Source: a virus
Taxonomy: Duplodnaviria; Heunggongvirae; Uroviricota; Caudoviricetes
Direction: 5' to 3' (one strand)
DNA: 35,845 bases
Virus record (IMG/VR): IMGVR_UViG_2671180473_000015
A program made the position numbers and the translations under genes. Numbering within the stretch: the first letter of the stretch is position 1; every line of letters begins with the position of its first letter. The notes under the pieces were generated by a model. That model was not told the origin of the DNA. It searched no databases and saw nothing but the letters and a program-made list of their open reading frames with translations. Below are positions 2,539 through 6,871 of this stretch, piece by piece.

Positions 2539-3363
2539 TCAGGCGGTGAAAGTACCAATAAAGGTTTCTACTTTGCTGTCTTTGAATTTCTCAACAAGCA
2601 GATCACGAAATTCGTTAGCCATTTCTTCCTGTACCGCTTCCAGCTGAATAATGCGCAGAACCAGTACAGGACGATCGCCAGTGATAATGCTGAGGCGTAA
2701 TTTAAACGGACGTTCTTTCAGACCTTCAAACGGAACGCATTTAAATTCAAATGCCACTGGCATAATGTCTTTGGTCTTCGCTTCGACAGACTCCATCAGG
2801 GAGCGTTTGCCGCTGAAGTCATTATCTTCAAAATCAGCGGTCTGGTTCGCTTCAATTGTGATTTTACGGATCGCCGCAGCCGCTTTGGTTGCCTGAATGG
2901 CGTCACCATTAGCATCAAAGCCCACAAGGTAGTCGGCCCAGTCTTCAATCCATTCTGCCAGTGACTTCTGGGAGTTACGCTCGCCATTAACAGACAACAG
3001 AGCAGAGAACGGAGCTGTCTTTTTCAGTTTGAGAGTGGCGGTGTTATCTGCGTGACCTGGTTCATCAATAGTACCCAGGTTAAGAACACTGACGGCACGC
3101 ATATTATCAGCATCGATAAAGCAGCGGGTGCCTTCATCTGCAAGATCTTTAGAATAACGAGTAAAGTCATCGATGCTGGCAGTGGAAAGCGCACCACGGA
3201 AACGGAAACGATTTAAATTTAATTTTTCCAGATCATGAATGCGGAAATTCTCAGGCAATGCCACAGCATCGGCACCAATCTTACTGATAATTTCATTAAC
3301 ACCCTGAGCAGAAATAAGGGCATGGATTTGATTAATTGCGGTTGCGTCTAAGTTCTGAGACAT
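2539..3363 (-). CDS. DUF2303 / YfdQ-like prophage protein
   Basis: 274-aa ORF. Length and sequence character match what I recall of the YfdQ (DUF2303) family of E. coli CPS-53-type prophages. Follows the YfdP-like gene in the same leftward operon. Confidence 0.55.
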
Positions 3364-3428: not shown

Positions 3429-3791
3429 TTAATGACCTGCTGCGCGGAGTTTTCCGTCAGGTTCACCGGCAAGAGTCAGTAATTGTCCCTGGTCTTCCTG
3501 CAGAATAGTCAGGCGACCACCGCGATTGACATACATCGGCGTTTCGGTGGTGTCTTCTTCGGAAATTTTCCCGCGGTTAGTCGGGCGAACATATGAGAGT
3601 TTGTGTTTGATTTTCACACGGTTCTCATCAAATGGTTCGATTTCCAGGTTGAGTGAGACCTTACCTTTGGTTTTCGTGTTCATCACACCGGAAGCGACTT
3701 CACTGAGAACTGCGCCGATTTTGGTTTCAAATACGCCGCCGTCCAGCTCCCCAATAAATGCCTGCACATCAGTACTGCGTTCGCTAGCCAT
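3429..3791 (-). CDS. conserved prophage early-left protein (YfdP-like), about 120 aa
   Basis: The track ORF 3429..3977 starts with TTG far upstream. An internal ATG at 3791 (MASERSTDVQAFIGELDGG...) has a good SD (AGGAGC, 6-7 nt upstream) and gives a 120-aa product. Confidence 0.55.
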   Translation of the reverse strand: MASERSTDVQAFIGELDGGVFETKIGAVLSEVASGVMNTKTKGKVSLNLEIEPFDENRVKIKHKLSYVRPTNRGKISEEDTTETPMYVNRGGRLTILQEDQGQLLTLAGEPDGKLRAAGH

Positions 3792-3840
3792 TTTGCTGCT
3801 CCTAATCATATCGACCCTGCAAGGTCGGTTGGTTTCTCCA

Positions 3841-3927
3841 CAAAACAGAGAAGAACACCTGCGGTGGCAGCCGCCCGGATGGATTTGGTTATGAGCCCGT
3901 CGTCCGGTGATGCTCTTCTCTGTTTTG
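3841..3927 (-). repeat. 87-bp inverted repeat with perfect 14-bp arms (long RNA stem in the early-left leader)
   Basis: Arms CAAAACAGAGAAGA (3841-3854) and TCTTCTCTGTTTTG (3914-3927) are exact reverse complements. The 59-nt spacer contains further self-complementary GC-rich segments. Lies just upstream of the YfdP-like start on the transcribed (minus) strand. Confidence 0.6.
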
Positions 3928-3928
3928 T

Positions 3929-3978
3929 AAAAAGAGCGGTACCAGCCGGAAGCAAGTGTACAAACTGGTACCGCCAAA
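3929..3978 (-). ncRNA. DicF-like small RNA candidate ending in an intrinsic terminator
   Basis: Minus-strand sequence TTTGGCGGTACCAGTTT...CTGGTACCGCTCTTTTT: an 11-bp stem (GGCGGTACCAG / CTGGTACCGCT, one G-U) followed by a U-run. Its 5' half closely resembles the core of DicF (TTTGGCGGTATCAGTTT) as I recall it. Located in the early-left operon downstream of the repressor gene, as DicF is in Qin. The 5' end is not determinable. Confidence 0.4.
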
Positions 3979-4406
3979 GCAGTGGCTGTTGTGGTGACCG
4001 GTGCTGATCTCCGGCTTGCGGTTATTTCAGACTCTCACGGGCGTTTAATTGCCCCGCCGAACAGCTCTTTTCCGCATTAGCTGCAATGTCTTTCGCGCAT
4101 CAGCCTGCGCATTCACCACAACGCTGAGAGCACTTAGCCAGTTACGGCACCACACTTTGTCGCGGTTCCATAAATGTCCTCATCGTTGCACCCTGGTCTC
4201 TTCCCAGGCGTCAAACCGAATCGCCACGCTGGTTAGGCGTCTTATCAGCATCATCATTGACTTGCACATTCCGGCTACCTGGTTTGTTTGCCCGAGCAAG
4301 GAGTGGATTGTCCCCTTTAACGTCCCCAGACCGCTAACGACGCATGTGCCATACGCCGTGTTACAACCAAATTTTGTTTAATCTTGCCTGTGCTGTGTTT
4401 CTTTTA

Positions 4407-4439
4407 GATACATTATGTATCCCAAAGGTACATTGTCAA
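4407..4439 (-). promoter_or_regulatory. PL-like early-left promoter overlapped by two operator palindromes
   Basis: On the minus strand: perfect -35 TTGACA (plus 4434-4439), 16-nt spacer, -10 CATAAT (plus 4412-4417). Overlapping palindromes TGTATCCCAAAGGTACA (4416-4432) and GATACATTATGTATC (4407-4421) share half-sites with the operators next to the repressor gene. Confidence 0.6.
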
Positions 4440-4440
4440 G

Positions 4441-4466
4441 TATAAAAAAACCTGCCGAAGCAGGTT
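4441..4466 (-). terminator. rho-independent terminator immediately downstream of the repressor gene
   Basis: Stem AACCTGC / GCAGGTT (loop CGAA) followed on the minus strand by a 7-nt U-run. The repressor stop is at 4478-4480. Confidence 0.55.
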
Positions 4467-4477
4467 ATAAATATTGA

Positions 4478-5152
4478 TTAGGCCTTTATTATGTATCTTC
4501 TTGGTTTTCCTGAGAAAATCACTGTACCAATTATAGAGCAATTACCGTTAATCTTAATGTAAGGCTCAGGCCAGTTTGGGTTTAATGCTTTGAGATAACG
4601 CTGTGTTCCATCTTCTATCAACCGCTTGAAGGTGGTTTCGCCTGTATCGTGCATCAATGCAATAACGTCGTCACCGTGGCAGGCAGGGACTTCAGGATCA
4701 ACAAAAATCATGTCTCCCGGGCGGTACTCATCAATCATTGAATCACCAATCACCCGCAAGATATAAGTCATTTCGCCACAGGGTACAGGGCAGGGATAAG
4801 TTTCTGCTGTGCTCAAATCAACCTCAGAATAGCCAACTTCTTTCCATGCTCCGGCCTGTACCCATGATATGACAGGGACTAACGTTATTTGTTTGTTAGT
4901 GATTGAAACGTCAGGTTTTTTTGTGATGTTCGTTGTCTGGTGTTCTTGATCAAGCCATCCGACAGGCAGGTCGAAACATTTTTCGATGTGCCGTGCCATG
5001 CTGTCACCGATATTTTTAGTTGCACCATCTCCCATAAACCTGCTGGTCTGGGTTGGCTCGCGATCAATCATGGTGGCAAAGGAAGAATTCCCGCCAACAC
5101 CATCTCTCAGTTTTCTGGCGTTAGACCGCCGGATGTCATGGACTGTTTTCAT
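4478..5152 (-). CDS. CI-like prophage repressor (HTH domain plus S24 LexA-like autopeptidase domain)
   Basis: 224-aa ORF. C-terminal domain carries the GDSM Ser motif (LRVIGDSM) and a downstream Lys (TFKRL) typical of S24 self-cleaving repressors. Divergent from the cro-like gene, with operator palindromes between them. Confidence 0.85.
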   Translation of the reverse strand: MKTVHDIRRSNARKLRDGVGGNSSFATMIDREPTQTSRFMGDGATKNIGDSMARHIEKCFDLPVGWLDQEHQTTNITKKPDVSITNKQITLVPVISWVQAGAWKEVGYSEVDLSTAETYPCPVPCGEMTYILRVIGDSMIDEYRPGDMIFVDPEVPACHGDDVIALMHDTGETTFKRLIEDGTQRYLKALNPNWPEPYIKINGNCSIIGTVIFSGKPRRYIIKA

Positions 5153-5474: not shown

Positions 5475-6038
5475 ATGAGGCTAACCGTGGGTAAGCATCA
5501 CTGGAAAGTAGAAAAACAGCCTGAGTGGTACGTGAAAGCTGTCAGAAAAACTATCGCGGCGTTGCCGGGGGGTTACGCTGAAGCTGCTGAGTGGCTGGAT
5601 GTAACAGAGAACGCTTTATTCAACCGCCTTCGTGCAGATGGCGATCAGATTTTCCCGCTGGGATGGGCAATGATTTTACAGCGCGCGGCTGGCACTCACT
5701 ACATTGCGGATGCTGTCGCACAGTCTGCTGGTGGGGTGTTTGTATCGCTTCCTGAAATTGAGGAAGTAGAGAACGCCGATATAAACCAGCGCCTGCTGGA
5801 AGTCATCGAACAGATCGGGAGTTACTCAAAGCAGATTCGTTCGGCAATCGAAGATGGGGTAGTGGAGCCACACGAGCAGACAGCAATTAATGATGAGTTG
5901 TATCTGTCAATTTCGAAGCTCCAGGAGCATGCAGCACTGGTCTACAAAATCTTTTGCGCTCCAGAAAAGAGTGACGCCCGCGAGTGTGCAGCTCCGGGCG
6001 TCGTGGCGTTTTGTGTCTGTGGAGAAACTAACGCATGA
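5475..6038 (+). CDS. early regulatory protein at the cII position (CII/YdaT-like, family uncertain)
   Basis: 187-aa ORF directly downstream of cro. Stop overlaps the next start (ATGA). Family assignment is from position and weak recollection only. Confidence 0.4.
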   Translation: MRLTVGKHHWKVEKQPEWYVKAVRKTIAALPGGYAEAAEWLDVTENALFNRLRADGDQIFPLGWAMILQRAAGTHYIADAVAQSAGGVFVSLPEIEEVENADINQRLLEVIEQIGSYSKQIRSAIEDGVVEPHEQTAINDELYLSISKLQEHAALVYKIFCAPEKSDARECAAPGVVAFCVCGETNA

Positions 6039-6871
6039 ACAGTTTAACGGCAAATAACCGTTTGTCGCAACAGCTGGTGGTCAGCGTCGCTGAACACCTG
6101 TTGTTACGGCATGAATGCAGATTACCAAATCACCTGGCTGTAAGTAACCACAGAGAACTTTACCTGACTGTGGGGGGCGAGTTGTGCAGGAACTTAACCG
6201 CTGGTTTCGTGACGGAAGAGGACTTTATGTTCATGTTATTCGTTGGGAGCCAGAAACACAGCGCGTTATCTATCTTCGCAAAGACTACCCGCATGAGTGC
6301 TTTAGTCCTTTGTGGAAATTCAGGCGTGATTTTGTTGAGTGTGAAGGACCACCAGCACATTGATTCTGCCATTCCGGGACGTTACACTGTTCAGGCACCT
6401 TATAAAGCGGGTGCCGGGATTGGCGTCCTGGAATTGATCAAGGCGATATATGACGCGCCAGCGTCTTTTTTATCGTCCGCATTTGCTCACATCAAAGTTA
6501 TGGTGGGCTGGGCGGGGGCATCGAAAGATGCGCCGGTTTCCTTGATCACCGGTTACGCCAACCCCGTTCAGTTCACCACCAGCGAAATTGGCGTTTCCGG
6601 TGGTGGAAGTATTTCACCGATCAAGGAGGCTGCCATCATGGCTACTGTCCCAGCCCTCACTCGTCTGAATGATGAAGACTTACATAAACTCAGTTATGTA
6701 ACAACTGCACTACGTGCTCTGCGCAAGGTAACTCTTTCGGATCCGCAGGCACATCAGGTTCTGGTAGAAACCCTTCTTAACTTGCAAGCTGAACGTATTC
6801 GTCTGGCGGATAAGGCTAATTTTCATATTCACCGTCTCCTGAATATCAGCGGAGGGCATCGTCATGCTTAA
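6035..6871 (+). CDS. hypothetical protein (gene structure uncertain)
   Basis: 278-codon open frame with SD GGAG upstream of the ATG at 6035, translationally coupled at both ends. No family recognised. An alternative 59-aa ORF in another frame (6184..6363) starts just after a G6 homopolymer, so a frameshift or overlapping genes cannot be excluded. Confidence 0.35.
   Translation: MNSLTANNRLSQQLVVSVAEHLLLRHECRLPNHLAVSNHRELYLTVGGELCRNLTAGFVTEEDFMFMLFVGSQKHSALSIFAKTTRMSALVLCGNSGVILLSVKDHQHIDSAIPGRYTVQAPYKAGAGIGVLELIKAIYDAPASFLSSAFAHIKVMVGWAGASKDAPVSLITGYANPVQFTTSEIGVSGGGSISPIKEAAIMATVPALTRLNDEDLHKLSYVTTALRALRKVTLSDPQAHQVLVETLLNLQAERIRLADKANFHIHRLLNISGGHRHA

Follow-up and report, generated by a model that had tools for sequence, protein, structure and literature searches.

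A DicF-related predicted terminator and a conserved three-way-junction RNA in the early-left operon leader of a lambdoid prophage of Escherichia coli

Introduction

What is made from the leader of an early-left operon that contains a hairpin similar to DicF, a small RNA (sRNA), and, directly beside it, a long inverted repeat? This question is raised by the virus record IMGVR_UViG_2671180473_000015, a stretch of 35,845 nucleotides (nt) that is called the window here and that is an SfV/e14-immunity-type lambdoid prophage of Escherichia coli, several chromosomes being 100% identical to it. All coordinates below are those of the window, and all its features lie on the minus strand unless marked (+). 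Downstream of a PL-like promoter (4439–4412) and upstream of the gene yfdP (ATG at 3791) there are, as the original prediction had it and as our analysis confirms, a hairpin with an 11-base-pair (bp) stem and a U-run and, next to it, perfect 14-nt arms lying exactly at 3841–3854 and 3914–3927 with a spacer of 59 nt. From the likeness of the hairpin to the DicF core it was proposed that the prophage may encode a DicF-family sRNA acting on host cell division via ftsZ, and that the inverted repeat, regarded as a simple hairpin with a GC-rich spacer, may be a substrate of RNase III. This interpretation as a whole is partly supported.

The best explanation of the data, which we put forward tentatively and at a little short of an even chance, is that we have here a non-coding, composite PL operon leader, made up of a terminator (hairpin 1, termed T1), an RNA with a three-way junction that depends on the read-through of T1, and a cleavage by RNase III. 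The evidence for its parts is presented first, and the alternative explanations are weighed at the points where the evidence bears on them.

Structure and conservation of the leader RNA

The leader is highly structured, as had been supposed: the 226 nt from 4010 to 3785 fold at −94.9 kcal/mol (z = −6.2), with 0 of 200 shuffles being as stable. The 14-nt arms extend to 25-nt arms that are 84% complementary (3840–3864 and 3904–3928). Rather than closing a simple hairpin, however, the inverted repeat is the core of the basal helix, P1, of a separate conserved three-way-junction RNA of ~107 nt (3939–3833), which was delineated with a covariance model (R1), pair counts and RNAalifold. P1 has 25 bp (3933–3909 / 3859–3835), comprising 20 pairs and five outermost pairs (U.G and U-A) that the U-tract of T1 forms with a conserved GGAGA. 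On P1 stand arm A (3907–3875), in which CCGGG/CCCGG is followed by GA/UC, then by GGG/CCC and then by the terminal loop CUCAUAA, and arm B (3874–3861), which has a 4-bp stem and either a variable loop or an insertion of 20–30 nt; the junctions each have one A left unpaired (3908 and 3860).

The comparison of 21 non-redundant sequences, with the partners slid by 1–3 columns as the control, indicates that this RNA structure is under selection. In the alignment 93% of the cells are paired, as against 39–55% with the partners slid, and the covariation score is 0.228, as against at most 0.085; changes on both sides are found in 13 pairs, a number reached by 0 of 500 shuffles. With ~20 bp or more of near-continuous double-stranded RNA (dsRNA) taken as the length for RNase III, P1 offers 20 pairs plus the 5 U-tract pairs (93.8% and 89.5% of cells paired), and a 25-bp helix maintained in this way by covariation would be a credible RNase III substrate, in agreement with that part of the earlier proposal.

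The transcript strand can also be fixed. U.G pairs are conserved in 13–19 of the 21 sequences, and these would be C.A mismatches on the other strand. The R1 model gives 114.6 bits (E = 1e-28) on the minus strand of the window but 45 bits on the antisense, and on related loci 90–122 bits in the sense and 33–50 bits in the antisense orientation. Protein coding was considered and rejected, for the indels among the homologues are not multiples of three and stops interrupt the frames in most of them. Because of the conserved U.G pairs and the non-triplet indels, the element is a non-coding RNA on the mRNA strand. It could be argued instead that the element, placed at a joint of the mosaic, acts only at the level of DNA, be it as a cruciform, a palindrome bound by a protein or a boundary sequence for recombination, and indeed in many phages the mosaic breaks at the 5' border of T1 and directly behind the conserved GGAGAAAC (3839–3832). 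Such an element, however, would leave the compensatory changes that keep the pairing, the conserved U.G pairs and the strong strand asymmetry of the model scores unaccounted for, so that this reading is disfavored and is hardly credible.

None of the 4227 Rfam families matches at the element, whether the window is searched at the gathering score, the region 3700–4500 and the short form (see below) at E ≤ 10, or 20 related loci, and our literature searches found no description of the junction RNA or of its sequence. The junction RNA is thus an uncatalogued structured RNA with strong covariation, with no Rfam family and without RefSeq annotation.

T1 itself (3929–3975) precedes the junction RNA and overlaps it. 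Its stem, formed by the 5' arm GGCGGTACCAG (3975–3965) and the 3' arm CTGGTACCGCT (3945–3935), has 10 perfect pairs and one G.U, encloses a loop of 19 nt and is followed by the U-tract UCUUUUU (3935–3929; TCTTTTT in the DNA), the hairpin folding at −22 kcal/mol; the consensus terminator scanner missed it only through its 8-nt loop limit. Among 19 leaders upstream of yfdP homologues, from ~12 genera of Enterobacterales, the changes in the stem are compensatory (one pair is UA in 10 and CG in 6 leaders, another AU in 13 and GC in 3), the loop varies in length between 13 and 50 nt, and the T-run does not vary. A stable GC-rich stem and an adjoining U-tract, as expected for an intrinsic terminator, are thus both present and both conserved. 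From this covariation and from the homology discussed below, T1 is predicted to be an intrinsic terminator or attenuator; the hairpin of DicF, its homologue, is a documented Rho-independent terminator (PMC5069750). It is noted that inside the T1 loops of seven leaders from several genera (L009, L028, L029, L031, L032, L033 and L041) there is an inner hairpin with a conserved GAGGAnGAnGATAATGTTCTG, which looks like a Shine-Dalgarno sequence with a mini open reading frame and which the window does not have.

Relation of hairpin 1 to DicF

The likeness to the DicF core that had been noticed for the 5' half of the hairpin holds against the true K-12 dicF sequence: in the block TTTGGCGGTAyCAGTTT, which forms the 5' arm of the DicF terminator, K-12 dicF and hairpin 1 agree at 16 of 17 positions, no part of the window matching dicF better (E = 0.019), and CCGCyCTTTTTA comes next in the same order in both (11 of 12 positions). 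As with DicF in the prophage Qin, the locus belongs to a lambdoid early-left operon, where it is found downstream of the prophage's repressor gene, and the hairpin is of the Rho-independent terminator type.

The leader of the phage Ayreon connects the two loci. It is 89% identical to that of the window, as are those of the cdtI and Stx2c phages, and a 123-nt segment of this PL leader of the Ayreon, cdtI and Stx2c type (in Ayreon, L002 2829–2951) matches Qin (L004 2752–2874) with 89.4% identity (E = 2e-44). In Ayreon this segment lies directly upstream of hairpin 1; its Qin counterpart lies just upstream of dicF and forms the body of the 190-nt DicF precursor (PMC10448788). In the window the place of this precursor domain of Qin and Ayreon is occupied by another structured domain that folds, module B (3985–4125), the closing stem of which, GUUGUGGUGA (4122–4113) with UCACCACAAC (3997–3988), is complementary at 10 of 10 positions. 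The sequence of module B is not BLAST-similar to Qin, and Qin retains an equivalent of its closing stem, GUUGUGGC/GCUGCAAC. Because Ayreon carries the Qin-like precursor domain before the same 17-nt block, the resemblance to DicF is not due to chance. From the Ayreon–Qin homology together with the kept closing stem we infer that hairpin 1 and the DicF terminator stand on one common leader scaffold and are homologous in position and, in part, in sequence.

Would hairpin 1 then be the 3' end of a trans-acting DicF-family sRNA, which matures with the aid of RNase III and represses ftsZ and metabolic mRNAs? The common 16/17 block, the same position in the operon, the homologous precursor domain in the sister leaders and the combination of a hairpin with a U-tail, which is typical of an Hfq-binding 3' module, would all fit with this. 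Against it, the covariance-model search for DicF (RF00039) that had been suggested as a check gives no match in the window at the gathering score, nor on 3700–4500 at E ≤ 10, nor in the Ayreon or SfV leaders, although in the positive control, Qin dicF, it scores 76.7 bits with a cut-off of 48. DicF pairs with xylR through its single-stranded 5' seed UUUCUGGUGACG (PMC5069750), and the 19-nt Qin segment TTATCAATTTTCTGGTGACG that holds this seed has no counterpart in the alignment with the window or Ayreon. DicF pairs with ftsZ and pykA through its 3' end (PMC5069750), and the loop and the 3' arm of hairpin 1 are unlike those of DicF. With the translation start of ftsZ, RNAduplex gives −24.8 kcal/mol for the window RNA (z = +1.3, 92% of the shuffles being equal or better), as against −38.5 kcal/mol (z = −1.8) for DicF, so that the predicted duplex is weaker than those of shuffles and an effect on cell division via ftsZ is not indicated. 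Moreover, the sequence 5' of hairpin 1 shows no evident RNase E site of the AU-rich, single-stranded kind. By every functional criterion testable here hairpin 1 is not a DicF-family sRNA, and we regard the trans-acting sRNA as very improbable. What stands of the proposed link is the homology of the terminators. This removes a tempting mis-annotation, the prophage not being predicted to act on ftsZ via a DicF homologue.

Two more differences concern processing. No three-way-junction RNA is present in Qin, and the RNase III-dependent ends reported for Qin flank DicF, 137 nt upstream and ~19 nt downstream, whereas the candidate site in the window is a local hairpin downstream of the terminator. 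Viewed from the other side, DicF seems to derive from a terminator common in PL leaders, one that gained the 19-nt seed insertion and had its 3' half remodelled; if this is so, it would be a concrete case of the birth of an sRNA from a terminator.

A further sequence recurs in these leaders. The box GTGGTGAATGCG is present in the leader of the window (4108–4122), in SfV (GTGGTGAATGCGGCTCAGCGCACGCGG; L001 ~3228–3255) and in Qin (L004 2964–2990), where it lies downstream of dicF and agrees with SfV at 26 of 27 positions; box and terminator hairpin follow each other in a different order in Qin than in the window and SfV. This box may be a small hairpin module.

Distribution and short form of the junction RNA

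T1 together with the junction RNA (3829–3985, coverage ≥80%) is found in 2478 of 5426 complete E. coli genomes (~46%), in up to five copies per genome and annotated in none. The pair is also present in mEp460, cdtI, Ayreon, SfV, SfII, SfIV and the Stx2a, Stx2c and Stx2k phages, and its carriers include many Enterobacterales prophages, among them Stx2-converting and Shigella serotype-converting phages. Salmonella ST64B and a Klebsiella phage have only the junction RNA. In the viral contigs yfdP comes next in 68 of 97 unique contexts, and elsewhere rdgC-like or other first genes do. In Providencia leaders a long helix stands beside T1 and the arms are absent, which supports the view that the long dsRNA is kept for its own sake.

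There is also a short form, with a 6-bp P1, an arm A carrying the same GGACGGCUCAUAACCCAAUCC and an arm B of 3 bp closed by a tetraloop. This form follows a GC hairpin and T-run at a distance of 6–8 nt, between the antiterminator gene Q and the holin gene, just after tR'; the annotated phage vB_EcoM-606R2 has the order Q, short-form motif, holin gene. In one contig the long and short forms are both present, on opposite strands and 8.6 kb apart, and in 10 of 13 short-form variants GCC comes next. Because both forms sit immediately downstream of a terminator that needs read-through, this position is their common denominator.

As side observations, a tRNA-Ile (AAU) lies just upstream of T1 in Phytobacter (L021 2222–2300), and a tRNA-Gln lies ~270 nt downstream of a variant motif (L073 10718–10791). 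Enterobacterial yfdP prophage DNA was also found in contigs labelled Chryseobacterium (L024), Martelella alba (L019/L020) and Fredinandcohnia humi (L016), labels that are probably due to assembly contamination.

Model of the leader and its alternatives

In our model, transcription from the PL-like promoter would meet T1, where a part of the transcripts would end, ~475 nt after the start. T1 goes back to the same leader scaffold as the DicF terminator of Qin and has neither of the two DicF seed regions. The transcripts that read through T1 would fold the ~107-nt three-way-junction RNA, which the terminated ones cannot form, because P1 uses the U-tract of T1 and the sequence downstream of it. 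RNase III would then cut the 25-bp helix, as it does in the retroregulation of lambda by sib, in the lambda N leader and in DicF precursors. This cleavage would have three consequences: the structured leader would be detached from the yfdP mRNA, the yfdP mRNA would receive a new 5' end near GGAGAAAC, and an RNA of ~80 nt carrying an invariant loop like that of initiator tRNA would be set free. The selected function may lie either in how the downstream mRNA is controlled or in the released RNA acting in trans. On such a model the junction RNA bears on the expression of the early-left operon in lambdoid phages without N.

The two lambda systems provide parallels. In lambda sib/tI a long hairpin in the PL transcript is completed only on read-through of the terminator, and the terminated and read-through RNAs have different fates; likewise, helix P1 of the window is completed only if T1 is read through. 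In the lambda N leader an RNase III site lies in the 5' leader before the first PL gene, which is also the location of the element in the window. Different from both, the apex in the window is a conserved three-way junction with an invariant loop, and a 6-bp short form exists. RNase III takes part in DicF biogenesis (PMC10448788, PMC5069750), as stated in the original prediction, which gives a precedent at the homologous Qin dicF locus, and from our structural analysis the cleavage of P1 is plausible.

A number of observations weigh against this model. A helix of 6 bp, as in the short form, cannot be an RNase III substrate, so that cleavage by RNase III is not the function of the whole family. 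One yfdP homologue has T1 and no junction RNA (L019), another has neither (L011), and one contig has the junction RNA without T1 (L115); because of these, T1 and the junction RNA are separable and modular. The prophages of K-12, the strain in which targets of RNase III have been mapped, are without the junction RNA, Qin and DLP12 having no copy, and CPS-53 has only the last ~25 nt before yfdP in common with the window. In the copy of the window itself, a change of C to A at 3886 breaks the third G-C pair of the GGG/CCC stem of arm A, which is invariant otherwise. Finally, no antiterminator able to drive the read-through of T1 was identified within the window.

With the short form out of reach of RNase III, whatever function all members of the family have must reside in the core of arm A. 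In addition, since the junction RNA is found before various first genes and in more than one operon, its partner would be a host factor rather than a neighboring phage protein, and most likely it is the core of arm A that contacts this host factor.

An alternative is that the junction RNA, hairpin 3 (see below) or both act in cis on transcription elongation: in the nascent transcript they would bind RNA polymerase, alone or with an N-like or host Nus factor, in the manner of HK022 put RNA or a nut site, so that over the length of a long operon neither Rho nor the terminators downstream would stop the polymerase. In favor of this, the element occurs in the leaders of two long antiterminated operons, PL and late, with one phage having both; the N gene is not the first PL gene in these phages; and the invariant apical loop, as well as the boxB-sized stem and conserved KGCAG loop of hairpin 3, fits with sequence-specific recognition. 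The 3' arm and U-tract of T1 in the window also read CGCUCUUUUUACAA, which resembles boxA; this likeness (CGCTCTTTTTACAA) was rejected as a conserved feature, for it is limited to E. coli and Shigella alleles. By contrast, the element always lies downstream of the adjacent terminator, on which it therefore cannot act. A search of the window with R1, filters off, gave no second copy of the junction RNA and none in the PR operon, and Q already provides antitermination in the late operon. No HK022 record is among the matches listed from the phage search with the leader, the sequence of put RNA itself not having been compared. The put RNA of HK022 (PMC9378689) resembles the junction RNA in that it is cis-encoded, has two adjacent stem-loops and lies in leaders of long operons, some phages having copies in two operons, while the junction RNA stands after a terminator rather than before it, lies inside a long helix and is present also in phages with Q. 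A put-type element would be expected upstream of the terminators on which it acts and in both the PL and the PR leader, and the junction RNA has neither feature, although in some phages the late leader has a second copy. Altogether, we consider an antitermination site of this kind unlikely.

Apical loop of arm A

In the family consensus the tip of arm A (GGGCUCAUAACCA in the window, 3886–3898; loop CUCAUAA at 3895–3889) reads GGGCUCAUAACCC, letter for letter the anticodon stem-loop of the initiator tRNA in E. coli (compared with K-12 metY). The match spans three G-C pairs and the 7-nt loop with CAU, and it extends to CG.CGGGCUCAUAACCC.A. In the alignments the tip is nearly invariant while every flanking stem covaries; the deviating lineages are three with CUCAUUC and one with no CAU (L032). 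At 3886 at least 90% of the homologues have C, and the A allele of the window is found in 6 viral contigs as against >120 with the consensus. In comparison with initiator tRNA (metY/metZ), the junction RNA shares the anticodon stem-loop but has no D arm or T arm, and the equivalent of C28–G42 is an internal loop (C / AA). As a tRNA proper the element was rejected, with ARAGORN finding none at it and the Rfam tRNA model giving no match at E ≤ 10 (short form).

The tip raises the possibility of an autonomous RNA gene embedded in operon leaders. Its product, of the size of a tRNA, would be cut out by RNase III (long form) or by processing of the tRNA type (short form) and would act in trans during lytic growth as a decoy or modulator; candidate partners are the P site of the 30S subunit together with IF3, MetRS, and a toxin that cleaves initiator tRNA, such as VapC. 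The agreement with E. coli tRNAfMet over the extended pattern, the invariance of the loop among covarying stems, the portability of the element between first genes and operons with no flanking phage protein common to all contexts, the tRNA genes adjoining the element in some phages and the GCC after 10 of the 13 short-form variants all speak for it. However, the tRNA-finding program and the tRNA model do not recognize the element, the lineages with CUCAUUC, the one without CAU and the armless Providencia leaders deviate at the tip, the allele of the window weakens the GGG/CCC stem, and an identity over 13 nt could be convergent or a relic. We thus judge an autonomous RNA gene to be quite unlikely. 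More specifically, an initiator-tRNA anticodon-arm mimic, made after read-through, excised by RNase III in the long form and acting on host initiation or as a decoy for a VapC-type toxin, is improbable; if true, it would be an RNA-based device of takeover or counter-defense in ~46% of complete E. coli genomes.

With a long closing helix, two apical hairpins, a location in a phage operon leader and the possibility of being excised from a longer transcript, the junction RNA is also reminiscent of the C4 RNA of P1/P7 (RF01695), from which it differs in having no match to the C4 model, no loop-complementary site in the window and no CCA-like 3' tail. A C4-type antisense action was rejected on these grounds: the only match in the window to the complement of the loop is the element itself, and there is no C4 match at the locus at E ≤ 10.

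Promoter, operon context and neighboring elements

The leader between the promoter and yfdP has ~610 nt and contains no gene in the RefSeq annotation; hairpin 1 and the inverted repeat fall within its final 200 nt. Upstream, the gene of an S24 cI-like repressor (5152–4478) is followed by its terminator (4466–4449), after which the PL-like sigma-70 promoter begins at 4439, with TTGACA-16-CATAAT agreeing with the consensus at 11 of 12 positions. A 15-bp operator-like palindrome, GATACATAATGTATC (4421–4407), overlaps the −10 hexamer, and a partial copy of it lies at 4488–4498, near the end of the repressor gene. The palindrome and its partial copy are probably OL operators, the promoter thus probably being under repressor control.

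Downstream of the junction RNA, hairpin 3 (3812–3827; CGACCU-UGCA-GGGUCG) lies 8 nt after the invariant GGAGAAAC and precedes the Shine-Dalgarno sequence AGGAG of yfdP (3803–3799). Its loop is GGCA or UGCA followed by G, with GCAG present in 52 of 57 unique homologous segments, and its stems covary; this hairpin is boxB-like in size and is kept in Buttiauxella L011, which has no junction RNA. The first gene of the early-left operon, yfdP (3429–3803 including the Shine-Dalgarno sequence; ATG at 3791, end at 3429), has no Pfam family match, and yfdQ (DUF2303) comes after it on the minus strand. In the minimum-free-energy fold GCCACUGCU, in the 5' flank of T1, pairs with AGCAGC..UGGCU, which would hide the start site of yfdP; we place no reliance on this reading, for an alternative flank, GTGTGTAGTC, is found with the same start site.

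In the early-right operon (+) the window has two true Rfam matches, isrK (6395–6471, 64.2 bits) and C4 RNA (6496–6583, 82.3 bits). Both lie within an open reading frame of 278 amino acids (6035–6871) that holds an Ash domain, and the same pair is present in SfV and Ayreon; it looks like an immI-like antirepressor control module of the P1/P7 type.

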